A stretch of DNA of 64,000 nucleotides from the NCBI GenBank assembly GCA_903901225.1, contig CAIUQE010000020.1, positions 5,092 through 69,091 of the forward strand, in the 5' to 3' direction. The notes under the pieces are model-generated. The model made no database searches, was not told where the DNA came from, and saw only the letters and a list, made by a program, of their open reading frames with translations. The DNA comes from Candidatus Omnitrophota bacterium. GTDB lineage: Bacteria > Omnitrophota > Gorgyraeia > Zapsychrales > Fredricksoniimonadaceae. Every line of letters starts with the position of its first letter. Position 1 is the stretch's first letter. This document shows, piece after piece, positions 7,067 to 44,238 of the stretch. A program made the translations under genes and the position numbers.

Positions 7067-7138
7067 ACGATACGTTCATTTTCCTTCTTTATACGGCCCA
7101 TTGCGGCCTGCTTTGAAAAAGTTCCATGTGATTCTAAC

Positions 7139-8320
7139 ATGCCGCGCAAGGAATATGCCAGTCATTGGTGCCCGGCATCCTTTATATCGGGATCTGTCAT
7201 GAAAACAAGACCAAATGACCCCAATGATCGGGACGAAAGACCGGCAGCCACCCGCCCCGGCGAATTATTGATCTCACTCGGTAATCGCTGCCAGTACCGC
7301 TGCCAATTCTGCGCATATTTAAAAGGCAGGAACCCAAAAGTCCTTTCCGCTTCCGCGTGGATATCCCTGCTGAAAGATGCCCGTAACCTGGGCTTCAAGA
7401 AACTCGAGATCGGCGGCCAGGGAGAGCCCGCTTTATTCAAAGGATTTGTGCGCATCGTGCATGAAGCGCGCGCCCTGGGATTCCGGATAAAGCTCTTAAG
7501 CAATATCCAGCACAAAAAAAATATCCTTGCCATATTACCCGCATTGAGCGAACTGACGGTCAACATGAACGCCCTTGATGAAAAAGGATTCCGCTGCCTG
7601 CACCAGCCGCAAAACCCCGCCTCGTTCAACACCGCCATCGACAACCTGGCTGATGGCGCGCGCCTGATCACTGAAGGAAGATCATCGGCCTTTCTCAATA
7701 TCAGCTATGTCGTTTCAAAAACAACGGCAAGGTCCGTCCTGCTTTTTCCAAAAAAACTTTGGAAGATGCTGCAGCAGCGAACGAACATTCAACACCCTGT
7801 GTATGTTCGCTTCCATCACATCCTGATGGTCCCCAGTAATTATCACCTTTGTCCGGACAGCCGTGACCTGCGGCGCATGATCGTGGCGCTTGATAAGGCC
7901 CAGGATAATGCGTTCCTGATGGCCCATTCCAATATCCGGGACTTCTCGACAGAAACAAAAAAGCTCCTGACTTTTTATAAACTCTGGGGACCATTCACGG
8001 CGGATTCGATCCCCGGCTCAAAAAAACACGCCGCAGCGGGAAAAATATCCCGTCACATCTGGTGCGATGCCGCTGAAAAGATCCTTTTCATTGATTGCGA
8101 CGGCGATGCTTTTGGCTGTTATAATCCGACCAGGACCTTGACCGGCATACCAGCCAGACAGGATGATCTATACCTGGGGAACATTCAGGAAGTCCCGGTA
8201 AGAACAATGCTCCGGCGGGCAAGTAAGATCGGCTGTTTTCATCCTGATATTACCAGGCGATCCTGGAAAGTCTGCGCGGCCTGCGGCCTGAGAACAACAT
8301 GGATGCCACCACACGCCTGA
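7139..8320 (+). CDS. radical SAM protein with SPASM-like C-terminus
   Basis: CQYRCQFC CxxxCxxC motif; C-terminal CDAAE..CDGDAFGC..C..CAAC cysteine cluster. Start uncertain: 7139 or the Met at 7199. Confidence 0.7.
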   Translation: MPRKEYASHWCPASFISGSVMKTRPNDPNDRDERPAATRPGELLISLGNRCQYRCQFCAYLKGRNPKVLSASAWISLLKDARNLGFKKLEIGGQGEPALFKGFVRIVHEARALGFRIKLLSNIQHKKNILAILPALSELTVNMNALDEKGFRCLHQPQNPASFNTAIDNLADGARLITEGRSSAFLNISYVVSKTTARSVLLFPKKLWKMLQQRTNIQHPVYVRFHHILMVPSNYHLCPDSRDLRRMIVALDKAQDNAFLMAHSNIRDFSTETKKLLTFYKLWGPFTADSIPGSKKHAAAGKISRHIWCDAAEKILFIDCDGDAFGCYNPTRTLTGIPARQDDLYLGNIQEVPVRTMLRRASKIGCFHPDITRRSWKVCAACGLRTTWMPPHA

Positions 8321-9150
8321 ATATCCTCCATTACGTCAAGTCAAGAACATCTCCGGGAACAAGCCGCCTGTTGAAGAAATTCTGCTGCCTCAAGCCAAGG
8401 ATCACCGGAAGCCTTGAGATATCCAGCGAATCCACCCAGGGAGCAGGCCGGGATTATGCCCGCCTGGCACTGACCTGCCTGCGCCGTGAACAGGTCATCA
8501 GCCTTTTCGCCGAAGCCGGCCATGCGCGCGCCGCCGTTGAACCCTACATGTTTGATAACCATAAGGACCATTGTTTCGGGATGGGCATCGCGGACTATGA
8601 CGCCACGCGCGACGAACGGCGGATGAAACTGTATAACTACTATCATCTTTCTCTACAGAAAGTCCCCTGGCGCGCCCATATCAGGAAAGTTTGCCATAAG
8701 GCGGGGATCTCCTTGCCGCAAATTGAAAAGGATCTCCTGTATTTCAAAAAAGCGCGGATGTCGGCGGTCGATCTTTATGACAGCGGCAAAGTCGAACTGA
8801 AGGTTTATTTCGGCCCTTTTCTCAGCAGGGATATCACGGGAAAATTCAAAGGACTTTTTAAAAAAAGGACCGTGCTCCGATACAAGGAATTATTATCAAC
8901 CGGCCACCTTCCGGACCTGGTCCTGTTCTGCGCGCGGTATGGCACTCATGGAAGGTCTATAAGGACCGATTTCTGGAACGGCCGGGAACGGCCTCTTGCG
9001 ATCCTCGAAGCATTGGATACGCAAGGCGAAGGACTAAGGTTGTACCATGACCTCGCGGCCATCACCAGCGCATTGCGGCTGACCTTCACATGCGTCGACA
9101 TGGACCAACGCCCAAGGACACAATTTTATTTTGAAATTATAGACTTTTGA
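8299..9150 (+). CDS. hypothetical protein (283 aa); alternating aromatic beta-strand pattern
   Basis: No recognisable motif. Repeated KVYF/LRLYH/FTCVDMD/QFYFEI strand-like segments; sits inside the rSAM cluster and overlaps the upstream gene end by 22 nt. Confidence 0.4.
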   Translation: MDATTRLNILHYVKSRTSPGTSRLLKKFCCLKPRITGSLEISSESTQGAGRDYARLALTCLRREQVISLFAEAGHARAAVEPYMFDNHKDHCFGMGIADYDATRDERRMKLYNYYHLSLQKVPWRAHIRKVCHKAGISLPQIEKDLLYFKKARMSAVDLYDSGKVELKVYFGPFLSRDITGKFKGLFKKRTVLRYKELLSTGHLPDLVLFCARYGTHGRSIRTDFWNGRERPLAILEALDTQGEGLRLYHDLAAITSALRLTFTCVDMDQRPRTQFYFEIIDF

Positions 9151-28380: not shown

Positions 28381-28623
28381 TTATTTTGTCGCAGGCGCAG
28401 GCGTAGCCGCTGGTGCCGTCGTTGTTGCGTCGGCAGCATCCGCTTTCTTGGCCTTCTTGTGACCCTTGCCCTTATGATGTTTAGCCTTTGACTTCTTCAC
28501 GGTCTGACCGGAAGCCGCGTCACCGGCAGCCGCCGAATTTGTGACCGGCGCCGCAGCCGTTTCCGCGAAACTCACCGCGGTGAACATGCCCAGGACAACG
28601 AGTGTTAACAATAACTTCTTCAT
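28381..28623 (-). CDS. small secreted Lys/Ala-rich protein (80 aa)
   Basis: Start at MKKLLLTLVVLGMFTAVSFA (signal peptide); KKSKAKHHKGKGHKKAKK basic tract. Confidence 0.45.
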   Translation of the reverse strand: MKKLLLTLVVLGMFTAVSFAETAAAPVTNSAAAGDAASGQTVKKSKAKHHKGKGHKKAKKADAADATTTAPAATPAPATK

Positions 28624-28672
28624 GACGATCTCCCTTTTCAACTGTTTTTTTATTAAATACCTTTTCCAAAAT

Positions 28673-28939
28673 TTACGCCGCAAAGGGCGGAGGCCGCTCC
28701 TGGCTGGTCAGAAGATACCTTTCAAGGCAGCGCGCCAGCTGGCCCTGTTCAAAATACTCCCGGATAAAAACAACCCCCGGCAAAACGACAGCGAATATAT
28801 CGCCCGGCAGGGCGAACGACGCGGGCTCGAACGACAGGAACGCGACCCGTTCATCCTCAACCGCCGCCGATAACGCCGGACGTCCGAACATGACGAACGC
28901 ACAAAGAATTATCAGGAACACCACAAATATCTTTTTCAT
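28673..28939 (-). CDS. hypothetical small protein with N-terminal hydrophobic segment
   Basis: ORF only; no motif recognised. Confidence 0.25.
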   Translation of the reverse strand: MKKIFVVFLIILCAFVMFGRPALSAAVEDERVAFLSFEPASFALPGDIFAVVLPGVVFIREYFEQGQLARCLERYLLTSQERPPPFAA

Positions 28940-28951
28940 ACCGCCCCGGGA

Positions 28952-29110
28952 TCAAAACAACGTATAAATAAAAGGAGCCACGGCTGAACTCTGAGCAAAA
29001 ATGATCAGCAGGCTCAACAACAACAGAATGATAATGATCGGCGCCAGCCAGAACCGCTTGCGTGTCTTTAAGAAATCCCAGAATTCTTTCACAATGGATA
29101 TTTTGGCCAT
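28952..29110 (-). CDS. DUF5989-like small membrane protein (52 aa), not in the ORF track
   Basis: Hand translation gives MAKISIVKEFWDFLKTRKRFWLAPIIIILLLLSLLIIFAQSSAVAPFIYTLF. From memory, this FW.F...KFWL...LLLL...SAVAPFIYTLF pattern fits the small proteins found next to carbamoyltransferase/SxtJ pairs. Confidence 0.6.
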   Translation of the reverse strand: MAKISIVKEFWDFLKTRKRFWLAPIIIILLLLSLLIIFAQSSAVAPFIYTLF

Positions 29111-29117
29111 ACCCGTC

Positions 29118-29516
29118 TCAAAACTGCTGTAAATACCGCTCTTTCAAAATATTCCCGGACGGACAACGCTGCCAGTACGTGGCCGCGTCCGCGTCCTTTT
29201 TCCGTTGCAAATGATCCTTGCCTGCCAGGCGCAACACAAGGCCGACAGGGACAAAAACAATAAAAAATACAACTCCCAGGATCACCGTCGTCATAATGCT
29301 GCCAATGATCTTGGCAACAGCCATCCACCCGCGGTATCCCGGCTTAAGCGCTTTCCAGCGGAGCAAGGTTACGCCTGTGAAAATAACAGCACAGATAAAA
29401 AACGTTACCGGCGCCCAGGAAAAGCCGTGCCTGAACACGCTGCCAAGGCCAAAGAACAGGGCAATAAGACCCAAACCGTAACCAAAGACGATAACATCTT
29501 TTTGAGCTTTATCCAT
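29118..29516 (-). CDS. SxtJ-like small membrane protein
   Basis: ~130-aa protein with three TM helices located between the carbamoyltransferase and DUF5989 genes. Confidence 0.5.
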   Translation of the reverse strand: MDKAQKDVIVFGYGLGLIALFFGLGSVFRHGFSWAPVTFFICAVIFTGVTLLRWKALKPGYRGWMAVAKIIGSIMTTVILGVVFFIVFVPVGLVLRLAGKDHLQRKKDADAATYWQRCPSGNILKERYLQQF

Positions 29517-29517
29517 A

Positions 29518-31350
29518 TTAATCCAAAATTTGCGATATTTGTTCTTTTTTGTATTTTTTACGCTCAGGCTGCTCGGCCTTGTCCAGGATGAACCTGTTCA
29601 GCACCAGATAATCCATGTCCGTGCACATAAAGCAGCGATAAGCATCCTCAAGCGTACAAACGATCGGCTCACCCCGGATATTGAACGACGTATTGATAAT
29701 AAGAGGACAGCCGGTCTTCTTAAAAAAAGCATTGATGATCCGGTAATAGAACGGATCACGCTCATTGTCAACGGTCTGCACGCGCGCGGAATGATCCACA
29801 TGCGTGATGGCGGGAACACTGGAGCGCCTGACCTTGAGCCGGGCAAGCCCCCTCAGCGTGCTGTCCCGGGATGCAGGATCGATCAGCGCCTCTTTGACCC
29901 GGCCAACCATGAGCATGTAAGGGCTGTCCTGGGGAAGGTCCACAACGTCCTGCGCATGCTCCCGCAGGATGCTGGGCGCGAAAGGCCGGAACGATTCGCG
30001 GAGCTTGATCCTCAGATTCATCTCTTCCTGCATTTTCATCGAGCGCGCGTCGCCAATGATACTGCGCGCCCCCAGCGCCCGCGGGCCGAACTCCATGCGC
30101 CCCTGAACAAGGCCGATGACCTTCTCGTCCGCCACGAGATCAGCCACCCTCTCAAAAATGCTCTCCCCGTCACATTTCTCATAAGGGACGCCTTTGGCCT
30201 GAAGGAACGTTTCCACCTCTTCATCCGCATAACCGGGGCCCAGGAGCGAACCTTTCTGAAGGTCATGCGTACCATCAACCCGCCGGGAATGACCAAGATA
30301 CTGGTGCCAGGCAAAAAGCGCGGCGCCCAGCGCGCCACCCGCGTCACCGGCAGCCGGCTGGATCCATATCTTGTCAAAGATCTTTTCCCGCGCGATCCTG
30401 CCATTGCCCACGCAATTAAGCGCGACCCCGCCCGCCAGGCACAGGTTCTTTTGCCCTGTCACCGCGCGCACATGACGGGCACTTGCCACCATGATCTCTT
30501 CAGTAACGACCTGGATGGACCTCGCCATATCCATATCAAATTGCGACAGGGCCGTCTCTGGCTGGCGCGGCGCGCGCCCGAAAAGGCGATGGAACCTTGC
30601 GTTGGTCATGGCAAGTCCGACGGGATAATTAAAATAGGCCATGTTGAGGCGGAAAGAGCCGTCGGGCTTGACGTCCACAAGCTCCCGGCGGATAATGTCC
30701 GCGTAACGCGGCTCTCCGTACGGCGCCAACCCCATGAGCTTGTATTCGCCGGAATTGACGCGGAATCCGCCGTAATACGTGAACGCGGAATACAGGAGTC
30801 CCAGCGAATGCGGGAAACGGAGCTCGTGCGTTAACGCCAGCGTGTTGCCTTCGCCCGTCCCAAAACTCGTTGTCGCCCACTCGCCAACGCCGTCCATGGT
30901 CATGATCGCCGCGCTTTCGAACGGCGAAGGAAAAAACGCCGAGGCCGCGTGCGCCTGGTGATGCTCTGAAAAAATAAGCTCCCCGCTGAACCCGTTGAGC
31001 TCAGCCAGGAGCAGGTCCTTGAGGAACATCTTCTCCTTGAGCCAGACGGGCATGGCCTTGAGAAAAGAAAAAAGGCCGGCGGGCGCGTAATTGAGATACG
31101 TCAGCAGAAGACGTTCGAATTTAAGGAATGGCTTTTCATAAAAGGCCGCGCACGCGACATCTTTGAGGGTGATCCCGGCTTCCTTGAGGCAATACCGCAA
31201 CGCCTCGACGGGAAACGCCGCGTCATGCTTCTTGCGTGAAAAACGTTCTTCCTGGGCGGCGGCAATGATAACGCCGTCACGCAGGACAGCCGCGGCGCTG
31301 TCATGATAAAAAGCGGAAATGCCAATGGTGTAAACAAAGGGTGTCATCAA
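29518..31350 (-). CDS. carbamoyltransferase (NodU/CmcH/HypF-like family)
   Basis: N-terminal ISAFYHDSAAA and ~600-aa length typical of O-carbamoyltransferases. Confidence 0.85.
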   Translation of the reverse strand: MMTPFVYTIGISAFYHDSAAAVLRDGVIIAAAQEERFSRKKHDAAFPVEALRYCLKEAGITLKDVACAAFYEKPFLKFERLLLTYLNYAPAGLFSFLKAMPVWLKEKMFLKDLLLAELNGFSGELIFSEHHQAHAASAFFPSPFESAAIMTMDGVGEWATTSFGTGEGNTLALTHELRFPHSLGLLYSAFTYYGGFRVNSGEYKLMGLAPYGEPRYADIIRRELVDVKPDGSFRLNMAYFNYPVGLAMTNARFHRLFGRAPRQPETALSQFDMDMARSIQVVTEEIMVASARHVRAVTGQKNLCLAGGVALNCVGNGRIAREKIFDKIWIQPAAGDAGGALGAALFAWHQYLGHSRRVDGTHDLQKGSLLGPGYADEEVETFLQAKGVPYEKCDGESIFERVADLVADEKVIGLVQGRMEFGPRALGARSIIGDARSMKMQEEMNLRIKLRESFRPFAPSILREHAQDVVDLPQDSPYMLMVGRVKEALIDPASRDSTLRGLARLKVRRSSVPAITHVDHSARVQTVDNERDPFYYRIINAFFKKTGCPLIINTSFNIRGEPIVCTLEDAYRCFMCTDMDYLVLNRFILDKAEQPERKKYKKEQISQILD

Positions 31351-32934: not shown

Positions 32935-33372
32935 TTATTGCGCAAATTCAAGACCACCATTGACCAGACGACGATAATAGCACCCGAACCGTGTCCGCCC
33001 CGCCTTGTCCTTCACGTGGCACGACCCGGCCCCTTTCATTGTCACCAGGTACAACAAAGAATTCTGCTCGCAATTGACCCTGACCTCGACGATCTCAAGC
33101 TCATCGCCGGACGTCTTGCCCTTGATCCACAGCTCGTGGCGGGACGTGCTCCAGAACGTCGCGAGGCCCGACTCAAGCGTGTGGCGCAGGGCTTTTTCAT
33201 TGGCATAGGCCAGGATCAGGACATCCTTCGTCGCCGCATCCTGCACGATGACCGGGACGACGGGATCAGGGCTCTGGGCGACCTTGCAAAGCTTCTCGAA
33301 ATCGATAAGAACGCCGGTGCCGTCTTCAAGGACCTGGTGCGTGACCTCACCTCTAAAATCTTTTCGGTTCAT
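32935..33372 (-). CDS. hisI: phosphoribosyl-AMP cyclohydrolase
   Basis: PVIVQD...ILAYANEKALRHTLESG..WSTSRHELWIKGKTSG matches the HisI core. Confidence 0.8.
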   Translation of the reverse strand: MNRKDFRGEVTHQVLEDGTGVLIDFEKLCKVAQSPDPVVPVIVQDAATKDVLILAYANEKALRHTLESGLATFWSTSRHELWIKGKTSGDELEIVEVRVNCEQNSLLYLVTMKGAGSCHVKDKAGRTRFGCYYRRLVNGGLEFAQ

Positions 33373-33381
33373 GGCTGCCTT

Positions 33382-34398
33382 TCAAGCGTAGATCTTCGCG
33401 AATTTGCGCGGTTTCCGGGTTTTCCACGACGCGTTATGGTACGCGTAGCTGACGATCAAAGGAACGACGGTCGTAGCCTCGGCGTAAACCATCTGCTCAT
33501 ACACCGTATCGACCTTGCCCCACGACGACGCTTCCTTGAGCGTGGAGCTGGAACAGGCACCGTCACGCACATCCGCGACCGTGACCTGGACCGCGTATTT
33601 GTGCATCGGGACCTCAACTCCCAGGACCTCGGCGCAAACGACCGTGTCCTGCGCGAAATTTTTCGGCACGCCCCCGCCGATCATGAAAAGGCCGGAGGTG
33701 GCGGACTTCATCTTGATCTGCGTCAGCTCGTAAAAATCCTTTACGGAATCAATGCTCAGGTGCGCGCGGGGATTCTTCACCTGGTGCAGCACCAGCCCGA
33801 ACCCGGCCGACGAATCCGTGAACGCGGGGCAAAAGATCGGCACATCATGCTCGTAAGCCACCTGGACCAGGGAATCCTTCTTTTTGGAATTCTTCAGCAG
33901 GTAACGGCCCATCTCGGCGATGAACTCCCGCGAAGAATACGGGCGCGGCTCTAAACTGTCAGCGATCTCGCCGATGGTGCGGTCGCAGGCCTGCAGTTGC
34001 GCTTCATCGATGAAGGTGTCGTAAATGCGGTCGATGTAGAGCGAACGCAGGACCTTGTCATCCACAAAGGGCGACCCCTTGTAATGCTTGAACCCGAGCG
34101 CCTCAAAGAAATCCATGTCGACGATCGAGGCTCCGGTGGCCACGATCGCGTCGATCATGCCCGAGCGGACCATCTCGACGTAGACCTGCATGCACCCGCC
34201 CGCGGACGTGCTCCCCGCCAGGGTAAGGATGTTGGCGGAGCTTTTCTCATTGATCATCTTGACCAGGATATCAGCCGCGCGCGCGGTATCGCGCGAGGTG
34301 AACGACATCTCCCGCATCGCGTCGATGATCTTCGTCGCGTCAAATGACCTGATGTCCACGTGCTTGACCGGGTTCTTGAGAAGGTCTTTTTTCTTCAT
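33382..34398 (-). CDS. deoxyhypusine synthase-like protein (DHS/homospermidine-synthase family)
   Basis: Overall similarity to the DHS fold (AGSTSAGG, IVATGASIVD, MIGGGVPKNF NAD-site-like segments); adjacent to a pyruvoyl arginine decarboxylase. Confidence 0.6.
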   Translation of the reverse strand: MKKKDLLKNPVKHVDIRSFDATKIIDAMREMSFTSRDTARAADILVKMINEKSSANILTLAGSTSAGGCMQVYVEMVRSGMIDAIVATGASIVDMDFFEALGFKHYKGSPFVDDKVLRSLYIDRIYDTFIDEAQLQACDRTIGEIADSLEPRPYSSREFIAEMGRYLLKNSKKKDSLVQVAYEHDVPIFCPAFTDSSAGFGLVLHQVKNPRAHLSIDSVKDFYELTQIKMKSATSGLFMIGGGVPKNFAQDTVVCAEVLGVEVPMHKYAVQVTVADVRDGACSSSTLKEASSWGKVDTVYEQMVYAEATTVVPLIVSYAYHNASWKTRKPRKFAKIYA

Positions 34399-34480
34399 CT
34401 TTTCTCTTTCTTGTGCCGGGTTAAAAAAAAGTCCGCGGTGAACTGCTCCGCGGACTCGAAGTTATGCGCAAGTCGCGTGA

Positions 34481-35110
34481 TTAGCGGATGCTCTGGACAG
34501 GATACACGTAATTCGTGAAACAGATCGCCACCAACGCGGTGCCGAATTTCTTTTTGGGAATAAAGCTCTCGGTTGTCAGGTGTTCGTCGCGCAACTCGTA
34601 TTCCTGGTCAAACCCGTTCTTGTAAAGGGTCTGGAGGCTCGCGCGCAGCTGTGTCCCCGCCTGCTCGGCGGTCAGGGACCCGTTATACTCGCAGACAAGC
34701 CCGCCGTAACGCTGCTTGCTCTTGCGGTTGTAAAGCCACCCGTAAATGATGCCCGCCGTGGCGCGCACCCCTTTTTCCATGCTGGCGCAGGCCATGATGG
34801 TCTCGACGACACAGCCATGGATAAGATCTTTGGGCTGGGCGACCAGGCGCGCGATGCCGGGAAGGATCGAGGAATAGGTCATGATGTTGTAACGTTCAAT
34901 GCCCGCGTCGCGCAAGGCCAGGTGGAACGACCCCGCGTGGACGGTGATGTCGCACTCACCGACGCCGCTCGTCACAAAATAATCTTTCGGGATACGCGTC
35001 CCGATGGTGAGCGACTGGAACTGCCTCTCGTTGACCAATCCTTCAGCGTCACGGATCACGTCATCAAGACCCGCCGGAGCGCTCACAACGATATTCGCGG
35101 CATGTTTCAT
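34481..35110 (-). CDS. pyruvoyl-dependent arginine decarboxylase
   Basis: ~200-aa protein with the MTYSS|ILP self-cleavage serine region typical of PvlArgDC. Confidence 0.7.
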   Translation of the reverse strand: MKHAANIVVSAPAGLDDVIRDAEGLVNERQFQSLTIGTRIPKDYFVTSGVGECDITVHAGSFHLALRDAGIERYNIMTYSSILPGIARLVAQPKDLIHGCVVETIMACASMEKGVRATAGIIYGWLYNRKSKQRYGGLVCEYNGSLTAEQAGTQLRASLQTLYKNGFDQEYELRDEHLTTESFIPKKKFGTALVAICFTNYVYPVQSIR

Positions 35111-35461
35111 TTCACCTGTATCCTTATTACCTGTTTGTTGACTGATCTTTCATCACCGGGAAATCAACGTAAATCTAGCACATATTAAAACAAAAAACAA
35201 CACGGAAGGCGCGCGCAAAACTTCCAACTGTTATTCTATACAAAATACTTTCAAATCATCAAAGAATCTTTGAAAAAAACTTTCGCGCGCCGGGATCCGG
35301 GAACGATGTTCTCCGTCGGAGAATCTACCTGCCGAAACAGGCCAGGCCCAGCAGCGCGCGTTGAATGAAGAATTTAACATCAATTGATATTTTTTGCAAA
35401 TAATATTTATTGATGAGCGATGATTTTCTTGCTGATAAAAAGCGTCCTTCTCCCCGCTTCT

Positions 35462-38398
35462 TTACCTGGCTGCCTCAAAGAACGATCGCGGATCATTTAA
35501 AGTTGTTACGCCAAGAACAACCGGCGTGAAACCATCGATCCGTTCTTCGAGCATCGCGGCATCAATGCCAATGTTAAAATTTATCTTCCCGCCAGTTTCC
35601 AGAAGGCGAAGCTTATCAGAATTAAGATCAATACCACCGTTCAAATTATTGGCATCAACGACTGTTTCACTATGCTGCGGCGTTGCGATCTTATTCTTTG
35701 CTCCTCTTCCCCAGACATGTTTTCCAGTTTTAAATTTTATTTCATCAAGATAACTCTCATCACTTGGTCCAGAAAATCTTATCCCGAACGCATTCGACAA
35801 TGCCTGGATCATATTGATTTTCTTTCTTTTCAGATGCGCGCCCGTGCTGCAGCTCTCGGCTATACCTTTGGCATCGGCCTTGACGAATTTGCTTAACATC
35901 CCCGAAGTCAACCGCCGATCCTCCGTTCGCAACGTTTCATCACCATAGTGCCCGAAGTCAATGGACCAGGGATTACCGTGCCCGCCAATGATCACAAACG
36001 ACGCCGGCTCCTTCCCATCCCCCGTTGCGTCAATAAAAGCATCGACCATTTCCTTGACAGAAGCCACTTCATAATACAGGACTGAATAGCCTTCTTTGAT
36101 CAATTGATCGATCGCCGATTCCCTCATAAATGCGGCATTCCGGTCTGATTTGGGATAAATAACAACAGCCCTTCCTTTCGGGGCTTGGGGGGTTGTCGTC
36201 ATTAATTTGTGCTGTAGTTTTCCGGCACTGGCCTGACGGTTATTAAAGCGATTGATCACGCGATTGATGAACAAATGCGATCTGATCTGCGCCGGCCAGG
36301 CTAACGGACGAAGAATATTTAACTCTTGCCAGTGGCCATACTGCAGCAACCTTTGCCATATATTGAAGCCATCTTTCTCCGATCTTTTTGCCAGCTCAAA
36401 CACCAACAATGAAAGTCTTTCTCTAAAATTATCCGTGCCGGATTTAACCCTGTCAGGTGGAGTCGTGCGCGGGAACATGCGCTCAAATTCATATTTAATC
36501 TCATCCATCCCAAAACGTGCATCTCGTATCAATTCTCCCCGATTGTAATACCTTGCGTATACATTCAGATTATTCATAAGATAATTTTTGGCCTCGTCAC
36601 TGCCCGCGTCAACCAAGGCATCCAATATGCGAATCGCCTTCTCCTGACTCAACCTATCTTTAGCAGCATGACTGACAATCCAACCCAAAGACCCAACTTC
36701 CCGAAAAGTTTTATTCCTGAGGGCATTCCTTCCTAATACCTCTATCACAGCATCTCGCGTCTTGCTTTCCAACCGATCCCATATTGAATTTCCATGATAA
36801 CTCAATAGAAAGCCAAGACCATACAACACGTTTTCATCGTTTTCCCTGGCATACTGGAACAACTCACGCGCGATCTCTACAGGAATGTGCCCACGGGAAT
36901 ACATACGTTCTAAATATGAATCAGCTACATCAACTCCCTTTGACACAAGACTGGCCAAAGCCCTAGTGATCAACACCCTGTGCTGACCATGAATGACTAT
37001 GCCCAGATGAAGAATCTCTGAGGCTATGCTCGTGTTGTTCTTACTAATTGCAGGATCTATAATCCCCTGAACATCAGGATCCTGGTACAGACTTAATAGC
37101 GCTGATACGATCTGCGGCGCAAGGCCAGGGCGACCTCTTCCCAAACTTATAAGCGCGTCCACAGTTTCGTAACTGTGGGCTCCTCGCATCAATGCCAGCA
37201 CTTCAGGAGCGTCAATCGAAGGAAATTTAAATCCCGAGGTCCGGCTTCCCGAAACAGGATCAAACTCAACCTCGGCGACTACATTTTTCCCGATATTCTT
37301 TTGCGCCGCATCAACCATCGCCCGGCCAGAAACCCGTTCTTCTTTGACCATCGCCGGGTCATGATGAAACCCGCCGGAGAAATATTTCCGGGGGATGATT
37401 TCCGAGGTTGTTTCATCCTTCTCTTCCTTGATGTAATTAAAAACACCTTTCCGAAACGCCTCCTCATACTGTTGCCAAATCTTGTCCTTGACCTTTTTAT
37501 CCGCCAGGTCAATCCCCGTCACCTTGTTCTTTGCCGCATATACCTGGCCGACCAGGCTCCGCTTCAAGTTGCGCTTGAACCACGTCGACAGGATCATGGC
37601 GTGATAGATCTGCCGCAACGTGCCAAAGTTTTCGCCGTTGTTGACCTCTTTCTCGATCTCAGGCAGAACGATCTCACGCATGACCTGCCGGGGAATGCCC
37701 CTGGCCTCAGCGAAGCCGTCCCGGGCTTTAGAATTATCGGAGTTCTTCCTCATGGACGTGTAATCAGTATCCAGCATGACCTTCAGGTGACTTTTCGCGA
37801 TAAATGCCGTATCGCCGTTCACATAGACAACCGCCTCATCCGGAACGATCCACACCTTGTTAAAAGTATCCAGCGGTATATCCGTCGTGCCGTATTTTTC
37901 AAAAACACGGGCGTAAATTTTCTTCCATACCTCACGGCCCAACGCCTTTTCGGGATACATCATCGATGAGGTCAATTGCTTGAGGATATAATCTTCGGCC
38001 AGAAGATCACGCCCCATTTCCGTAAGGCCAAAGTTGTCCGGGATGATCCTGTCGCCTTCATAAGGAGACAAATTCACCCAAAGCTCATCCTCCGGGACCG
38101 TCAAGGCAGCCAGAAAATACCTGATCAACCTGGTCGATTCCTGTTGCAACGGCACCCCCTGAAGGGCGGAATTTCCGGTATCAATAAGAAAATCAAAGCG
38201 TAATTGATCGGCAGGATAAACTTTCATGCCCTTAAGGACCGCTGGCACGAATGAAACGCTTGGGGTAACCATTGTGCCCGGTTGAGGCAGGATCCTCTCA
38301 CCTGCAACCATCTGGGCATATGACGGCGGGACGCTGGCGGTTATGAAGGCCACCAGCATGAATGACGCGATTACTCTTTTAGTGATTTCTTCCATCAT
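35462..38398 (-). CDS. large secreted protein (978 aa), unknown function; C-terminal region with a His-Gly...Cys arrangement reminiscent of clan-CD cysteine peptidases
   Basis: Signal peptide (FITASVPPSYAQ). Markedly lower GC than the surroundings. C-terminal ASFVIIGGHGNPW ... AESCSTG. No other motif recognised. Confidence 0.45.
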   Translation of the reverse strand: MMEEITKRVIASFMLVAFITASVPPSYAQMVAGERILPQPGTMVTPSVSFVPAVLKGMKVYPADQLRFDFLIDTGNSALQGVPLQQESTRLIRYFLAALTVPEDELWVNLSPYEGDRIIPDNFGLTEMGRDLLAEDYILKQLTSSMMYPEKALGREVWKKIYARVFEKYGTTDIPLDTFNKVWIVPDEAVVYVNGDTAFIAKSHLKVMLDTDYTSMRKNSDNSKARDGFAEARGIPRQVMREIVLPEIEKEVNNGENFGTLRQIYHAMILSTWFKRNLKRSLVGQVYAAKNKVTGIDLADKKVKDKIWQQYEEAFRKGVFNYIKEEKDETTSEIIPRKYFSGGFHHDPAMVKEERVSGRAMVDAAQKNIGKNVVAEVEFDPVSGSRTSGFKFPSIDAPEVLALMRGAHSYETVDALISLGRGRPGLAPQIVSALLSLYQDPDVQGIIDPAISKNNTSIASEILHLGIVIHGQHRVLITRALASLVSKGVDVADSYLERMYSRGHIPVEIARELFQYARENDENVLYGLGFLLSYHGNSIWDRLESKTRDAVIEVLGRNALRNKTFREVGSLGWIVSHAAKDRLSQEKAIRILDALVDAGSDEAKNYLMNNLNVYARYYNRGELIRDARFGMDEIKYEFERMFPRTTPPDRVKSGTDNFRERLSLLVFELAKRSEKDGFNIWQRLLQYGHWQELNILRPLAWPAQIRSHLFINRVINRFNNRQASAGKLQHKLMTTTPQAPKGRAVVIYPKSDRNAAFMRESAIDQLIKEGYSVLYYEVASVKEMVDAFIDATGDGKEPASFVIIGGHGNPWSIDFGHYGDETLRTEDRRLTSGMLSKFVKADAKGIAESCSTGAHLKRKKINMIQALSNAFGIRFSGPSDESYLDEIKFKTGKHVWGRGAKNKIATPQHSETVVDANNLNGGIDLNSDKLRLLETGGKINFNIGIDAAMLEERIDGFTPVVLGVTTLNDPRSFFEAAR

Positions 38399-38595
38399 CC
38401 CTTGCCCCTTAGAAAAACGATCACCACACCGTTAAATCAAGTATAGTCTATGAATATACGCTGGATGCGAAATTGGATGGTTTGACAAGAAAACGTTACT
38501 ACTACTTCTTGCAAGTAGTTGGGGAATAAAGACTTTGTAGTGTACTCAAATAGAAAACATTTGTAATTTCAACAGGCAAGGCTTGACAAAAAAAC

Positions 38596-39279
38596 CTAAA
38601 ATTTAAAGTTCACGCTGGTGGCCAAAGCCTGTCCCCCTCCAACCGCCCCTTCACAATTGAGCCACACTTTGGGCGTGAGCGGGATATCCACACCCAGGAC
38701 CGCGTCGAACCGGCGGCCCTCGCTCACAAACACGCGGTCCGCGTCATTGTTGATCCGGTGGATGTAGTCGGCCGAGCCGTAGCGCAGGCCCGTGTAAGGC
38801 GTGAATTTCTTCAGGTCATAGGACACCAACGCTGATCCCTGCCAGTCGTCCAGGATGGCATTATGCTTTTCGCCGTTGGCCTTGACCGTCGCGGGATGGA
38901 TACTGATGTGCTGGAAACCGCTGACGACCTTGACCGGGCCGCCCTCATAAAGCCTCACGCGAAATCCATAGCCACCGCCCCAGACAGGCGTGTTGTATTT
39001 GATCCGGGACCCGTCACCGGCCTCATGCTCGATGGTGCCGACGCTTGCCTTAAGGTCCAGGGAGAACCAGTCCGTCACGCCGTAGGTGAGCAGGAAATGC
39101 TCCTGGCGGCTTTTGAGATCGCCGTTGTCCTTGTTGAGGTCGCGGTCAAATATCTCATAATGCTGCAACCCGAAAAAGAATTCCTTCTGCCGCGGCATTT
39201 TCGTGCCGTACGCCGGCGCCGCCTGGGCGCATGTGCCCAACAAGAACAGAACAACTGCGATCATGATCACTTGCCGCAT
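38596..39279 (-). CDS. outer-membrane beta-barrel protein (OmpA-like small porin family)
   Basis: Signal peptide, alternating hydrophobic beta-strand pattern, C-terminal ...SVNFKF. Confidence 0.6.
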   Translation of the reverse strand: MRQVIMIAVVLFLLGTCAQAAPAYGTKMPRQKEFFFGLQHYEIFDRDLNKDNGDLKSRQEHFLLTYGVTDWFSLDLKASVGTIEHEAGDGSRIKYNTPVWGGGYGFRVRLYEGGPVKVVSGFQHISIHPATVKANGEKHNAILDDWQGSALVSYDLKKFTPYTGLRYGSADYIHRINNDADRVFVSEGRRFDAVLGVDIPLTPKVWLNCEGAVGGGQALATSVNFKF

Positions 39280-39328: not shown

Positions 39329-39481
39329 CTAGCAGCATCCCTTACGCCCCGACCCGTCGGTCTTGGAAGAACAGGAACAACCGCCGCCCTCATTGGCCAG
39401 CGATTGCATCTTCTTGTCGACTTTGGCGAACAGGTTCGCGAAGAACCCCTTCTTTTCCTTCTTCTGCTTGTCATCACCCAT
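39329..39481 (-). CDS. small Lys-rich / Cys-rich peptide (50 aa), not in the ORF track
   Basis: GGAGG RBS 5 nt upstream of the ATG. Translation: MGDDKQKKEKKGFFANLFAKVDKKMQSLANEGGGCSCSSKTDGSGRKGCC. Confidence 0.45.
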   Translation of the reverse strand: MGDDKQKKEKKGFFANLFAKVDKKMQSLANEGGGCSCSSKTDGSGRKGCC

Positions 39482-39581: not shown

Positions 39582-39653
39582 GTCCCCTTAGCTCAATGGA
39601 TAGAGCACAAGCCTCCGGAGCTTGGGATGGGGGTTCGATTCCCCCAGGGGGCG
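39582..39653 (+). tRNA. tRNA-Arg (anticodon CCG)
   Basis: Manual fold: acceptor GTCCCCT/AGGGGGC (one G:U), D-arm GCTC-AATGGATA-GAGC, anticodon stem CAAGC/GCTTG with loop CUCCGGA, T-arm GGGGG-TTCGATT-CCCCC. Confidence 0.8.
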
Positions 39654-39676
39654 CTCTTTCGCTCCGCGAAAGAGCG
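39652..39676 (+). terminator. hairpin (10-bp stem CGCTCTTTCG/CGAAAGAGCG) starting at the tRNA-Arg 3' end
   Basis: Perfect 10-bp inverted repeat with a 5-nt loop, followed by a moderately T-rich stretch; likely tRNA transcript terminator/processing structure. Confidence 0.45.
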
Positions 39677-39755: not shown

Positions 39756-40814
39756 TCATGCGGGTATCTGCTGCGACAAACAATGGCACGTCCCCAGTCC
39801 CACAATGATCGCGCTGCAATCGATCGGAACGATCCTGCGATCCTTAAAAACTCCCTTTAAGATCTTGATGGCCACCTTGTCCTGCGGACAGTTGAACACC
39901 GGCACCAGGACGATCCCGTTGGCGATATAAAAATTCGCGTAACTCGCCGGAAGGCGCTCGTCCTTGCGGTAATAGACGGGCCTTGGCATGGGAAGTTCAA
40001 CGATACGGAATGGCTTGCCGTTCACATCGCGGAAATTTTTGAGGTCCGCGAGATTCTCTTGCAGTATCCCGTAATTATCATCCGCCTTATCAGCTTCAAC
40101 AACGGTCACGATCGTGCGCGCGTCCGTGAACCGCGCGATATCGTCGATATGGCCGTTGGTGTCATCCCCCGCGATCCCGTCCCGGAGCCACAGGACCTTG
40201 CGTACGCCCAGGTTCGCCTTTAACAACCCTTCGATCTGCGCTTTGGAAAGTTGAGGATTGCGGTTCTTGTTCAGGAGGCATGCTTCCGTCGTCAAAAGGA
40301 CACCGGCCCCGTTGACATCGATCGAGCCTCCCTCCATCACCCAGGGAAATGAAAAACATTCCACCCCCAGGAACGCGGCCATCTTCTTCGCGATGCGGTT
40401 ATCCTTGGCCGACGGGTATTTTCCGCCCCAGGCGTTGAAGATCCAGTCGGTGGCGACCACGCGCCCGCTGCCGCGGTGCTTCAGAAAGATCGCGCCATGG
40501 TCCCGGCACCACGCGTCATTCGTCGGGAACAGGTGCAGGAAAACATTACGCCGCACGGCGCGCCGCCGCAATTTCAGCGTGAGCGCGCGGGCCATGGCCT
40601 CATCACAGACATTGACATGGACTTCCTCGACTTTGGCCAGGGCCGCGACAATATCAGCGAACCCTTCCTGGGCGCCCTTGAGTTTTGTAAAGAAACTTTT
40701 TGGATTATGCGGATACGACAGCCACGTGCCCCGGTGGGGTTCCCACTCGGCAGGCATCCTGTAACCTTGAGCGGTCAAGCGATGCGGATCGATATGAACG
40801 GCTGGCATCGTCAC
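39756..40814 (-). CDS. aguA: agmatine deiminase
   Basis: MPAEWEPH N-terminus, CRDHG, and C-terminal GGGIHCITQQ-like TCHCLSQQ catalytic Cys region. Confidence 0.85.
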   Translation of the reverse strand: MTMPAVHIDPHRLTAQGYRMPAEWEPHRGTWLSYPHNPKSFFTKLKGAQEGFADIVAALAKVEEVHVNVCDEAMARALTLKLRRRAVRRNVFLHLFPTNDAWCRDHGAIFLKHRGSGRVVATDWIFNAWGGKYPSAKDNRIAKKMAAFLGVECFSFPWVMEGGSIDVNGAGVLLTTEACLLNKNRNPQLSKAQIEGLLKANLGVRKVLWLRDGIAGDDTNGHIDDIARFTDARTIVTVVEADKADDNYGILQENLADLKNFRDVNGKPFRIVELPMPRPVYYRKDERLPASYANFYIANGIVLVPVFNCPQDKVAIKILKGVFKDRRIVPIDCSAIIVGLGTCHCLSQQIPA

Positions 40815-41707
40815 TCCTGGCCATCCGCGTAACGTTTGAGGATATCCGCGTAACTGTCAATGCGCCGGTCGCGCAGGAAAGGCCACTGGACACGCTTCGC
40901 GTTGATCACATCCAGATCGACCGGGACTACCAGGACCTCTTCTTTTCCGACGGAAGCCCGCTTAATGACCGTGCCGTAGGGGTCGGCCACGAAACTCTGG
41001 CCCCAGAACTCGATCCCGTCCTTGCCAGCCGGATCCTGCTCAAAACCGACGCGGTTGGCGGCCGCCACGTAGCAGCCGTTGGCGATCGCGTGCGACCTCT
41101 GGATGGTTTCCCATGACGCGTGCTGGCGTTCCCCGTAAACGGCCTTATCAGGCGGAAGCCAGCCGATGGCCGTGGGATAAAAGATGATCTGGGCCCCCAT
41201 GAGCGCGGTCAGGCGGGCCGCCTCCGGGTACCACTGATCCCAGCAGATCAGGACGCCGATATCCGCGTATCTGGTCCTGAACACCTTGTACCCGAGATCG
41301 CCGGGCGCGAAATAAAATTTCTCGTAGAACTGGGGATCATCGGGGATATGCATCTTGCGGTATTTTCCCAGGTATTTCCCGTCGGCGTCAAGGACTGCGG
41401 CCGTGTTGTGATAAACACCCTCTGCCCGCTTCTCGAAGAGCGACGCCACGATGACGGCCTTGTGCTTTTTGGCGAAAGCGCCCAGCTCTTTCACCGTCGC
41501 GGAATTTTCCGTGACAGGCTCGGCCAGCTTGAAAAGTTCATAGGATTCCTGCTGGCAGAAATACCGGGACTTGAAAAGTTCCTGGGTGCAGATGACCTTC
41601 GCGCCCTTCTTCACCGCCGAAGCCATGAGCGAAAGGGCCTTGTCAAAATTCCGCCGCGGCGAGGGGCCACAGGCTGTCTGGATCAGGGCGATATCAAGTT
41701 TGGCCAT
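40811..41707 (-). CDS. aguB: N-carbamoylputrescine amidase (nitrilase superfamily)
   Basis: Nitrilase-fold E-K-C triad context (ICWDQWYPE) and overall CPA similarity; translationally coupled to aguA. Confidence 0.85.
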   Translation of the reverse strand: MAKLDIALIQTACGPSPRRNFDKALSLMASAVKKGAKVICTQELFKSRYFCQQESYELFKLAEPVTENSATVKELGAFAKKHKAVIVASLFEKRAEGVYHNTAAVLDADGKYLGKYRKMHIPDDPQFYEKFYFAPGDLGYKVFRTRYADIGVLICWDQWYPEAARLTALMGAQIIFYPTAIGWLPPDKAVYGERQHASWETIQRSHAIANGCYVAAANRVGFEQDPAGKDGIEFWGQSFVADPYGTVIKRASVGKEEVLVVPVDLDVINAKRVQWPFLRDRRIDSYADILKRYADGQE

Positions 41708-41715
41708 GGGTCGTC

Positions 41716-44238
41716 CTAGAATCTTTTTTCGTAAGTGAGCCGGACCATGTGCTGCGTGGAAAGCACCGGCGCCGCGTAATATCCCAACAGAGGATTGGTC
41801 GTCGATGTGTCAACGAAATAGACCGGCCCCACGCCGAACTGCAGCGAGAACGTATTGTCCTTGGGCGCGATATAGCGGCTTTCCAGGAAAACATTGTGGT
41901 AATAACGATAATCCAGGACTTTATCCTTGTTGAACCGGTTAAGGTCATACCCCCGCGACAACGTGTACCGGGCGAAGAACCCGAGGCTTTTCGTCGGCAC
42001 CACGCTGGTCTCAAACCCGAAATGGTCCATGTTGTCGTCGATATTGCCCGCGAAACCGTTGGGGTTGCGCGTGTAATCGAAATACAGGTCCCAGATATTC
42101 GCCGGGCGAAGGTGCAGGCCGGTCTTGAAAATATTATGATAATCATACGGCGACTGGGGCAGGTAACCCTGGTCATACAGCCACGGCATGGGCCCGCGGT
42201 AAAGACGCCCGTTCTGGACGTACGTCTGCGTGCTCATACCGTCAAAAAGGCCGCGCGGGAAATTGTCCTCGGCAAGCGTGAGGTCATTGCTGTATTCCCA
42301 AACACCGTTGACATCCGCCCACTCGGTCAGCTGGTAACGCGCGCCGAGCGTCCCCGTCTCCAGGTTCCTTTTGTCACCGCCGGGGATCGCGTTATTGACC
42401 AGCGGCAGGCCCGTGTCATTGTTGGTGACGAACGGGTCCTCGTTCATGCGTGTCCGTGGCATCCCGTGCCAGAGGGCCAACCCCTCGAGCGTCAATTCAT
42501 CGGTCGTCTTCCAGGTCCATTCTGTCCGCGCCACGTTCTCGATCGTGTTATTCGCGTTGGTCGTCACATGGCGAAAATCGGCCATGCCTTCCACTTTTCC
42601 GTCAAATAAGAGCGTGTCCGCGCGCGCGCCGGCCACATCGCGGCCAATGTCGATCCCGTTGCCGAGCGCGAAAGCTTCCTGGTCCGACTCCGACATCGTG
42701 GCTTTGGCCCCCGGCATCTTGCGGTACAACGACGGATAAAATGTCAAATGCCGGCTCCAGAACGCGTCATCACGGGTCTTGTGATAATTCGACAGCGTCG
42801 ATTCGAACCCTCTGTCCATCCGGGCAAAAAAGAGCTTGCCCTTGTAAAGCGACCCGCCCTCCATCGTCCGCTGGGACATGTAATCTTTCTTCAGGAGGTC
42901 GACAGCATTGGAGATCGCTTCGATGGACGCAAAATACGCTTGCCCCTCTTCCTTGGTGCGGTAGGTATGGTTGCTCCAGTCGTTATGGCTGACCGAGGAA
43001 CTCACCTGCGCCTGCGCCTTGACGCCGTCAACGGGAACGATCGCCGTGTCCGTGCTGGCGACATAATTCTGCTCATCGACCCTCTTGTCAACAAAACCAA
43101 GGTGCATGTTGCCGGTCCCGCCGATATAAGCATTGTCGCCGAGGTACTGCTTGACGCGCAGGCTGCCCGGAACGGCGGTCACCTCGTTATAATCCTGCCA
43201 CAGCGTCTTGGGCGAAGCCACGGTGGCCTGGATCGTCGTGTCCTCCCCGGGATGCGCGTCGAGCGCCACGCCGCGCAGGGCGGTCAAGTGCGTCCCATCG
43301 CTGTCACGGGTCGCGAACGCAAGGCCACTGTCCCAGTACCCCTTGGAAAAATCCTCCGGCAGGGCGGTCAGGTGATTGACCTGCCCGCCGCGCCAGTCAT
43401 TCAGCCACGGGCTTGCTTCCCACCAGGTCTTGTTATTGGAAAGCCTCAACGGGTCATCACTGGTCAGCGCCTGGTCCTGGTAAGCCATGGGGAATATCCG
43501 TATCTTCCCGGCATCCCCCGGCTTGATGTCGACCCAGAACTCGCGCACGGGCTGGAAGGTAGTTTTCACCTTCATATCCGGCGTGCTGAAAGAATCGCAC
43601 TGCCCCCACTGGTTGCAGATCGTGGAAGCCATGGAAGCCGCGGGAACGGTACTGTTCTTGACCTTGAGCTCAGGCAGGGCCAGCACCCCCGCGTAAGTCA
43701 GGGTGTTGACCGAATGGTTGATCGTGTAACCGTTGTTGCCCCAGAACAAATGCTGGACCCGCGCGGTGTCGCCCCAGGCGCTGGTCACGTCCATGGTGCC
43801 GGTCCTGCCCGTATAGCTCCACGGGTCAACGGTCACGTTCAGGTGCATGCCGACGGCATCCTGGACCGCCGCGTCAACAACCACCTTGATCCGCGAATAT
43901 ATCGCCGGGTCATAGGTGTTCTGGTAGTTGTTCAGCTGGGCGCCGGAAAGGATGCGGAAATTCCGCTCGTTAAGGTCGGCGCTGGCGCGGGTAAAAACAG
44001 CGCCGTCGTTGGTATTGAACCCCACCGCGGCATGCAGCTCGCCGGACATCTTGACCTTCACGGGAAGTTTGGCAGAACGCAGCACTCCCGCCCCCTGCTC
44101 GAAAGTGTCCATGACGGAATTGACGATGGACGCGCGCAGTTCATCAAGTTCATTGTATTCCTGGGCCGGCGCCAAGCGCGCGCCCAGGAGCAGGATGAAC
44201 CCGCAGCACACCCATGATCTCAACGTGATTTTACGCAT
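41716..44238 (-). CDS. large outer-membrane protein (840 aa), unknown function
   Basis: Signal peptide (LGARLAPAQE), abundant amphipathic Y/W/N/G/T-rich segments, C-terminal ...LTYEKRF. Confidence 0.5.
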   Translation of the reverse strand: MRKITLRSWVCCGFILLLGARLAPAQEYNELDELRASIVNSVMDTFEQGAGVLRSAKLPVKVKMSGELHAAVGFNTNDGAVFTRASADLNERNFRILSGAQLNNYQNTYDPAIYSRIKVVVDAAVQDAVGMHLNVTVDPWSYTGRTGTMDVTSAWGDTARVQHLFWGNNGYTINHSVNTLTYAGVLALPELKVKNSTVPAASMASTICNQWGQCDSFSTPDMKVKTTFQPVREFWVDIKPGDAGKIRIFPMAYQDQALTSDDPLRLSNNKTWWEASPWLNDWRGGQVNHLTALPEDFSKGYWDSGLAFATRDSDGTHLTALRGVALDAHPGEDTTIQATVASPKTLWQDYNEVTAVPGSLRVKQYLGDNAYIGGTGNMHLGFVDKRVDEQNYVASTDTAIVPVDGVKAQAQVSSSVSHNDWSNHTYRTKEEGQAYFASIEAISNAVDLLKKDYMSQRTMEGGSLYKGKLFFARMDRGFESTLSNYHKTRDDAFWSRHLTFYPSLYRKMPGAKATMSESDQEAFALGNGIDIGRDVAGARADTLLFDGKVEGMADFRHVTTNANNTIENVARTEWTWKTTDELTLEGLALWHGMPRTRMNEDPFVTNNDTGLPLVNNAIPGGDKRNLETGTLGARYQLTEWADVNGVWEYSNDLTLAEDNFPRGLFDGMSTQTYVQNGRLYRGPMPWLYDQGYLPQSPYDYHNIFKTGLHLRPANIWDLYFDYTRNPNGFAGNIDDNMDHFGFETSVVPTKSLGFFARYTLSRGYDLNRFNKDKVLDYRYYHNVFLESRYIAPKDNTFSLQFGVGPVYFVDTSTTNPLLGYYAAPVLSTQHMVRLTYEKRF

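Follow-up and report, generated by a model that had tools for sequence, protein, structure and literature searches.

A probable single-gene insertion in an Omnitrophota polyamine locus, encoding a head-cargo-tail protein with a caspase-like fold

Why would a gene for a large, apparently secreted protein lie in the middle of an otherwise coherent group of polyamine genes? This question is raised by a 64,000-nucleotide stretch of DNA from a Candidatus Omnitrophota bacterium (contig CAIUQE010000020.1 of assembly GCA_903901225.1, positions 5,092 to 69,091; hereafter the window), in which a first-pass annotation had pointed to an AT-rich island with a single gene for a 978-residue protein, suggesting that a secreted effector or protease with a possible clan-CD-like peptidase domain had been acquired horizontally. 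Our analysis indicates that the gene is probably a single-gene insertion of ~3.5 kb, encoding a putatively Sec-exported protein in which a conserved head and a conserved tail bracket a peptidase cargo with a caspase fold. The head-tail family to which the protein belongs had been overlooked, and is a more interesting feature of the protein than the protease.

A conserved head and tail around unrelated cargos

The open reading frame (ORF) of the gene begins with ATG, has a Shine-Dalgarno-like AAGGGG stretch just 5' of its start and encodes 978 residues (Table 1; the coordinates include the stop codon). The same protein is present, with identical sequence, in three independent assemblies, as the 978-residue form (P0263) and as a 965-residue form with Met14 as its start. 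Queried against 5.8 billion proteins, the 978-residue protein matched more than 3,700 clusters at 50-70% identity, and nearly all of these matches are confined to residues ~5-345/385, the head. A second match, to residues ~915-978 (the tail), recurs at the extreme C-terminus of head-bearing proteins, whatever the cargo. A hidden Markov model (HMM) of the tail detects it in 106 of 120 family matches, usually 0-25 residues from the end, and most of the 14 tail-less matches are annotated as partial. At 79 family loci from reference genomes, 60 of the 66 head-bearing ORFs also have the tail, the exceptions being genes split into neighbouring head-only and tail-only pieces, or ORFs cut off by a contig end. 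Between head and tail the members carry unrelated sequences, and the length of the proteins encoded at these loci ranges from 795 to 2,334 residues.

The cargos are strikingly diverse. In those that Pfam matches at all, it identifies PEP-utilising/PPDK, transketolase, protein kinase, HATPase_c, GNAT, NDK, thymidylate kinase, UDP-glucose pyrophosphorylase, EPSP synthase, macro, DnaJ, metallophosphatase, GDSL lipase, glycosyltransferase, WD40 and TPR domains, and an independent sample contained PGK, PP2C, NUDIX, DRAT, CofD, response-regulator receiver, HEAT and LysM; most cargos are cytoplasmic-type, nucleotide-using enzymes. No Pfam family recurs across the members, so that neither the head nor the tail is in Pfam. 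Reference genomes contain at least 589 family loci, nearly all of them in metagenome-assembled genomes (MAGs) of Omnitrophota, some of which carry the automatic label 'Planctomycetales'. Single matches in 'Bacteroidales' and 'Heimdallarchaeota' MAGs look like binning noise, and the family is essentially confined to Omnitrophota. It is also multi-copy, with single MAGs contributing five to six of the best 80 loci and tandem copies at six of the 79 reference-genome loci. Two thirds of the conserved sequence of the 978-residue protein, that is, head plus tail, belongs to this family. No description of the family or of its tail motif was found in the searchable literature, and the scaffold is apparently a large and undescribed Omnitrophota family.

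All the head motifs of the family (WVNLSPYE, TEMGRDLL, NFxxLRQIY and IPRKYFSGG) are present in the 978-residue protein. By our working definition, a family member has the head right behind an N-terminal signal peptide and a GGIDLN-type tail no more than about 40 residues from the C-terminus, and the 978-residue protein qualifies on both counts. The AlphaFold2 (AF2) model of the head has a predicted local distance difference test score (pLDDT) of 85.4 and a predicted template modelling (pTM) score of 0.83. No structure in the PDB (best Foldseek E 0.08, template modelling (TM) score about 0.1) or in the viral library BFVD matches it significantly, and sequence and profile searches with the head gave no match in Pfam, NCBIfam or PDB sequences. 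ClyA-type pore-forming toxins (NheA, MakA/B/E, SmhA) were rejected as relatives of the head, their matches (E 0.08-1, TM-score about 0.1) not being significant. Ahead of the head, the N-terminus (MMEEITKRVIASFMLVAFITASVPPSYA, followed by Q) has the n-, h- and c-region layout of a Sec signal peptide, judged heuristically, with K7 and R8 in the n-region, a hydrophobic core and a predicted cleavage site between SYA and Q. The same heuristic is passed by 50 of 60 family members: their n-region is positively charged, their core is hydrophobic and a small-x-small site follows, which typically reads SYA before Q. At least 90% of the members keep Q29. In the AF2 model the signal region is a helix followed by a disordered stretch.

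Two side observations concern the borders of the modules. The end of the head (residues 336-343, IPRKYFSGG) reads KYFSGG in 54 of 60 family members, and the start of the tail (residues 921-926, GGIDLN) reads GG[IV][DN][LFM] in 52 of 60. Judging from these motifs, the cargos could be insertions at the Gly-Gly of an ancestral protein in which head and tail were joined directly; no cargo-free head-tail member was seen among the proteins examined. Tandem paralogues are 65-72% identical at the DNA level in the head and share nothing elsewhere, leaving recent shuffling of cassettes by gene conversion unsupported. A viral origin was also rejected, with the head gene on 3 of 2.9 million viral contigs and no hits in PHROGs. 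The IMG/VR contigs L086-L088, in which the head module is encoded with 50-51% identity, may be cellular contigs that were wrongly classed as viral, or their head genes may lie next to prophages.

The caspase-fold cargo

What, then, is carried between this particular head and tail? Eight full-length homologues share the cargo of the 978-residue protein at 33-45% identity, with a strongly conserved C-terminal block (AVVIYPKSDxNxAF, GYSVLYYEV, IGGHG, F and SCSTG). In the 978-residue protein the corresponding motifs are FVIIGGHGNPWS, which contains His807, and IAESCSTGAHL, which contains Cys850. The dyad is intact, and its two residues vary hardly or not at all across 9 close and 51 distant homologues: His807 is invariant in the alignments of close homologues and at least 90% conserved in the 51-sequence domain alignment, in which Cys850 and Gly808 are invariant and Asp752, Asn754, Glu777, Ser849 and Gly853 are likewise at least 90% conserved. 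The domain has a family-specific motif set (YPKSDxNxAF, GYxVxYYE, GGHG, SCSTG and NMxxA), and a helical pre-domain just upstream is conserved together with it (F658, W690, RP697-698, W701 and R713). No Pfam repeat families were detected in the middle region that follows the head (residues 346-653), even in homologues. A word-index search with residues 386-915 gave no match, not even to the identical protein P0001, and we treated this as an artefact, not as absence.

An AF2 model was made of residues 640-978. Its core has a pLDDT above 90, with 10-residue blocks over the domain mostly at 85-97, and the pre-domain consists of helices (654-676, 680-686 and 703-724) of high pLDDT. In a Foldseek search against the PDB, the top 50 matches are all caspases (CED-3, caspase-7, -3, -9 and -6, and Sf-caspase-1), with E-values of 7e-6 to 3e-4 and a probability of 1.00, out of 103 matches at E<=1e-3. 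In the canonical clan-CD dyad the His, followed by a Gly, ends strand 3 and the Cys ends strand 4. The model has the same arrangement, with His807-Gly808 right after the third strand (799-805) and Cys850 right after the fourth (839-848). A weak profile alignment (probability 4.5%) with human caspase-3, the sequence of which was validated against PDB entries, places GGHG on SHG (His121), IDFG on IIFG and SCSTG on ACRGT (Cys163).

The domain is widespread. When 1.84 billion representatives were searched exhaustively with a profile, 1,967 clusters reached E<=1e-3, 715 of them E<=1e-10, and the relatives span many architectures, many of them short (200-500 residues) and others of 3-6 thousand residues. 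Among the 51 domain members, Pfam matches are to DUF4347 in 20 (best E 4.6e-9), CHAT in 12, Peptidase_C14 in 6 (best E 2.4e-7) and Peptidase_C80 in one (E 0.0045). The distant member P0141 lies above the DUF4347 threshold with 28.4 bits, and the close homologue P0008, with 21.9 bits, lies under the 24.6 cutoff. We also note that the giant proteins P0121, P0124, P0125, P0133 and P0134 (3,400-6,200 residues) carry the same domain, sometimes more than once, and that HEAT repeats recur upstream of it in shorter relatives such as P0137.

Several results speak against too close an identification with known peptidases. The Foldseek matches have modest TM-scores of 0.33-0.40 on the target, with root-mean-square deviations of 6-9 A; by itself, the hhalign match to caspase-3 lacks significance; and profiles of the domain retrieve no PDB sequence. 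The 978-residue protein matches no Pfam family even at E<=1, does not reach the gathering thresholds of Peptidase_C14, CHAT or DUF4347, and has no match in NCBIfam, PDB sequences, PADLOC (0 hits) or PHROGs. Since it passes no curated Pfam threshold, we regard it as a divergent relative and not as a called member. Caspases proper (C14A) have QACxG where the 978-residue protein has the pentapeptide ESCST, and no p20/p10 linker or Asp-pocket signature is identifiable in it. Its likeness to clan-CD peptidases at large (caspases C14, CHAT, DUF4347 and the C80 cysteine protease domain) lies in the caspase-hemoglobinase alpha/beta fold of the model and in the order and register of His-Gly after strand 3 and Cys after strand 4, whereas its own motif set, the conserved helical pre-domain and the predicted signal peptide set it apart. 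Fold, motif and family, as judged from the model and from sequence comparison, thus all support the assignment of residues 735-905 as a clan-CD-like peptidase domain, and the domain is a new divergent member of a widespread DUF4347/CHAT-like branch of the clan. No description of DUF4347 function was found in the searchable literature. The likeness to the caspase-type His-Gly/Cys dyad that the first-pass annotation had seen in the C-terminal motifs holds up on these three counts, and the signal peptide it proposed is retained as a prediction.

A variable slot in the polyamine locus

How the gene came to lie where it does is best approached through its neighbours and relatives. On one side it is followed by genes for a pyruvoyl arginine decarboxylase and a deoxyhypusine-synthase-like (DHS) protein, the latter 85-89% identical to proteins labelled Ca. 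Omnitrophica, and on the other side lie genes for an agmatine deiminase and a CN-hydrolase. Between a tRNA-Arg(CCG) gene and the arginine decarboxylase gene is a slot, the content of which varies among relatives, and four relatives, 82-88% identical in the adjacent DHS, lack the 978-residue gene in this slot. In two of them (L084 and ERZ1426597; DHS 88% identical) the slot is empty, agmatine deiminase and tRNA being followed by arginine decarboxylase; in the third it is occupied by an alpha-2-macroglobulin and an alginate-export gene; and in the fourth (L085) by a 141-residue gene, ArsP and a 227-residue gene. The tRNA gene is 91-96% identical in the loci of the relatives, the flanking coding DNA about 73-76%. 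Compared with L085 by blastn, homology reaches down to window position 38597 and starts again at 35128, which leaves a segment specific to the source genome, placed between the 227-residue gene and the arginine decarboxylase gene.

The composition of the gene is also atypical. Its GC content is 0.481, as compared with 0.581 +/- 0.028 for the other 44 window ORFs of at least 150 residues, which makes it the lowest of all 45 (z = -3.6), and the GC content at third codon positions (GC3) is 0.532 vs 0.691. Since GC3 is lower too, the gap sits in synonymous sites and not in amino-acid content alone. Among head-tail genes, its difference of -0.10 from its surroundings is extreme. The best database match of its head is a paralogue with a different cargo (70% identical), and the closest homologues with the same cargo, at 43-45% identity, are in other genomic contexts. 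These results bear on most of what the first-pass annotation had claimed for the region. The island it drew from 35111 to 38595 coincides almost exactly with the genome-specific segment, and a single 978-residue gene, AT-rich non-coding flanks of ~200-350 bp and an interrupted polyamine neighbourhood are all found; the contrast of 45% vs ~60% GC that it gave by eye is right in direction and somewhat exaggerated in size. The windowed composition and the presence of the gene in close relatives, which it had named as checks, gave the values and absences reported above.

Table 1 Features of the locus; coordinates are those of the window.
Feature	Coordinates	Strand	Description or basis
Segment specific to source genome relative to locus L085	about 35129-38596		blastn; one gene plus AT-rich spacers
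Head-cargo-tail ORF, 978 residues	35462-38398	-	ORF call; identical protein in three assemblies
Predicted Sec signal peptide, residues 1-29	38312-38398	-	Sequence features
Conserved head module, residues 30-345	37364-38311	-	Sequence matches, AF2 model
Linker/middle region, residues 346-653	36440-37363	-	Kept only among ~8 full-length homologues
Helical pre-domain, residues 654-734	36197-36439	-	Conserved alongside protease domain
Caspase-hemoglobinase-fold (clan-CD-like) domain, residues 735-905	35684-36196	-	Foldseek, profile search
His807 codon (GGHG), putative catalytic His	35978-35980	-	Conservation, strand position, caspase-3 alignment
Cys850 codon (SCSTG), putative catalytic Cys	35849-35851	-	Conservation, strand position, caspase-3 alignment
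Conserved C-terminal tail (GGIDLN...IDGFxPV...), residues 915-978	35465-35656	-	Family matches
Upstream AT-rich spacer	38399-38595		197 bp, GC 0.37, non-coding
Downstream AT-rich spacer, up to arginine decarboxylase gene	35111-35461		351 bp, GC 0.40, non-coding
tRNA-Arg(CCG), edge of variable slot	39582-39654	+	73 nt; ARAGORN; Rfam RF00005, 64.7 bits
Pyruvoyl arginine decarboxylase gene	34481-35110	-	
DHS-like gene	33382-34398	-	
Arginine decarboxylase, DHS-like and PRA-CH triad	32935-35110	-	
Agmatine deiminase gene	39756-40814		
CN-hydrolase gene	40811-41707		
227-residue gene	38596-39279	-	
Called 50-residue ORF	39329-39481	-	
840-residue protein gene	41716-44238	-	

Some observations weigh against horizontal acquisition. 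No direct or inverted repeats were found flanking the gene, there is no integrase or transposase among the neighbouring genes, and the variable side of the slot is the 5' side of the tRNA gene. In addition, head-tail genes generally have a slightly lower GC content than their neighbours (mean difference -0.016, in 31 of 46 cases, Wilcoxon p = 0.003), and part of the GC anomaly may belong to the family and not to recent transfer. One could accordingly suppose that the gene was present at the locus ancestrally and that the sampled relatives have lost it, its low GC reflecting family bias or relaxed amelioration, a reading that would suit the missing mobility genes and repeat scars, and also the head-coding part of the gene, the GC3 of which (0.62) is nearer to the host value than that of the cargo part. 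We consider this rather unlikely, given that the four relatives show four different slot contents, two of them empty, that a difference of -0.10 is far beyond the family mean, and that the best head match has a different cargo while the best same-cargo homologue, 45% identical, is found in another context. The loci of the relatives have a GC content of 0.50-0.53, near the 0.48 of the gene. It is most economical to suppose that the gene was acquired within Omnitrophota, most likely from another genome of the phylum with a lower GC content and not from a foreign phylum. Of the original proposal of horizontal acquisition, the absence from the slot in four relatives and the atypical composition are observed, and we infer the transfer itself. 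A classical tRNA-integrated island was rejected: a tRNA gene adjoins, but the variable side is 5', and the insertion is not a classical integrative island because integrase, transposase and repeat scar are all missing.

The promoter and ribosome-binding site of the gene presumably lie within the upstream spacer, in which a consensus promoter scan found no match above background; in the downstream spacer, a terminator-like site at 35216-35200 on the minus strand was not above background in the scan. Two other stretches of the window have a below-average GC content, 6245-9150 (0.52-0.54) and 28500-29750 (0.45-0.53), and tblastn found no head or tail homologue in either. The 227-residue gene that shares the slot has no Pfam or PHROGs match, and a called 50-residue ORF is also located within the slot. 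The 227-residue gene and the head-tail gene are independent, because L085 has the former without the latter. The arginine decarboxylase, DHS-like and PRA-CH (HisI-like, 145 residues) genes form a triad, the order of which is kept in every relative examined (L083-L085). Bacteroidales homologues of the DHS-like protein (77-79% identical) carry the NCBI name '1,9-bis(guanidino)-5-aza-nonane synthase', which suggests that the polyamine route at the locus may be agmatine-based. Directly upstream of the CN-hydrolase gene, an 840-residue protein without a Pfam match is encoded, the position of which is kept in relatives (840 residues in L085, with 67% DNA identity, and 851 residues in the ERZ1426597 contig). 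The locus is a clean example of a variable slot beside a tRNA gene in an otherwise conserved polyamine operon.

Possible export and delivery of the head-tail family

If the predictions above are correct, the protein would cross the inner membrane through Sec and lose its signal peptide at the site between SYA and Q. Head and tail, being common to all cargos, would direct it to one destination, whether by surface display, secretion or delivery to a host or prey, and at that destination the caspase-fold domain would act on target proteins as a cysteine endopeptidase. Published work infers that Omnitrophota are nanobacteria with a host-dependent or predatory way of life (PMC10066038; bioRxiv 10.1101/2023.11.21.568195). 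Because most cargos depend on nucleotides and would be useless in the periplasm, and because of this presumed way of life, we favour display toward or delivery into another cell. Most likely the 978-residue protein is a protease that the cell exports and perhaps displays toward, or delivers to, host or prey cells, and we infer that head and tail serve as shared targeting modules. More tentatively, and with less confidence than we would need to favour it, the head and the GGIDLN tail may be the recognition and translocation modules of an undescribed, Omnitrophota-specific display or delivery system. Three points count against these proposals: apart from generic response regulators, no neighbour family or machinery recurs in the 79 loci; the signal peptide was called by heuristic alone; and the tail has a pLDDT below 50 in the AF2 model, with a shallow alignment.

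Comparison with known systems is instructive. The type IX secretion system (T9SS) is a system of Bacteroidota and the wider FCB group. Its cargo resembles the head-tail proteins in combining an N-terminal Sec signal with a C-terminal element that is conserved across functionally unrelated proteins, but the Omnitrophota tail is 55-60 residues long with the motif GGIDLN...IDGFxPV and matches no NCBIfam (TIGR04183) or Pfam C-terminal domain (CTD) model at E<=1, and the Omnitrophota proteins add a head of ~315 residues, belong to another phylum and carry mostly cytoplasmic-type enzymes. With polymorphic toxins (Rhs, CDI, MARTX) the family shares conserved trafficking modules joined to highly variable enzymatic modules, a large number of paralogues, and members that are often below genome GC and variably present. 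In contrast to these toxins, however, the variable part is internal, with both termini conserved, and not C-terminal; no adjacent immunity gene or dedicated secretion gene recurs in the 79 loci; the heads of tandem copies, only 65-72% identical in DNA, give no sign of recent cassette displacement; and in place of classic toxins the cargos are enzymes of metabolic or signalling type. Closer to home are the 'Archaeovorins', giant multi-enzyme proteins of Omnitrophota with predicted signal peptides and a proposed role in host or prey interaction (bioRxiv 10.1101/2023.11.21.568195; 10.64898/2026.06.07.730766). They come from the same phylum and overlap in domains (HEAT_2, HATPase_c, PPDK_N, TPR, HAD, NUDIX and glycosyltransferases), and the caspase-fold domain likewise occurs in proteins of 3-6 thousand residues. 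The head-tail proteins differ in being 0.8-2.3 thousand residues long with one or few cargo domains each, and head and tail are not mentioned in the two Archaeovorin papers.

The exported protease acting on other proteins has to be weighed against other roles for the same domain. The C80 peptidases are cis-acting clan-CD cysteine protease domains of MARTX and large clostridial toxins, and the caspase-fold domain might similarly process its own protein, for example freeing the cargo from head or tail after export or entry, with no foreign substrates. The single Peptidase_C80 match of a distant member, the absence of other obvious enzymatic cargo from the 978-residue protein and the occurrence of the domain inside proteins of 3,400-6,200 residues, where self-cleavage would make sense, are all consistent with this. 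We nevertheless judge self-processing improbable, though worth keeping in mind: C80 is the weakest of the clan-CD signals, which are dominated by DUF4347, CHAT and C14, many relatives of the domain have only 200-500 residues and nothing to release, and no cleavage site is identifiable. A further analogy is offered by PorU, the clan-CD (C25-like) enzyme that removes the CTD from T9SS cargo and itself carries a T9SS CTD. By this analogy the 978-residue protein, which combines a clan-CD fold with the head and tail that its would-be substrates also carry, could serve the head-tail system as maturation peptidase or 'sortase', trimming heads or tails of other members once they are exported. A housekeeping maturase should be conserved, whereas full-length homologues with this cargo are rare (about eight among more than 3,700 clusters) and the gene is absent in close relatives even though the family is ubiquitous in the phylum, and we therefore find such a role very improbable. 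CHAT domains, finally, are common in CRISPR- or NTPase-associated conflict systems, and the weak CHAT matches among the domain relatives could point to a cytoplasmic defence or signalling protease of this type, or the domain could be an inactive caspase-like scaffold or binding module. There is hardly any likelihood in either: the invariant dyad and surrounding motifs argue against a pseudo-enzyme, the N-terminus is a predicted signal peptide, and no NTPase, TPR or CRISPR partner gene is adjacent. A role in a defence system was in fact rejected, with no PADLOC hit, neighbours that are polyamine genes and the signal peptide predicted.

Omnitrophota are uncultured, widespread and ultra-small bacteria that are thought to depend or prey on other microbes. 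In this light, the layout of a conserved head and tail bracketing diverse enzymes behind a secretion signal, which is typical of a shared trafficking device, deserves attention. With the protease domain, the caspase/CHAT/DUF4347 clan gains a large branch of about 2,000 representative clusters. If head and tail are indeed a shared trafficking device, the family would provide a searchable list of candidate effectors, with head and tail as experimental handles. Should they be the modules of a display or delivery system, hundreds of different cytoplasmic-type enzymes would be exported to the surface or into host or prey cells, and the head-tail family would be the main effector repertoire of Omnitrophota.

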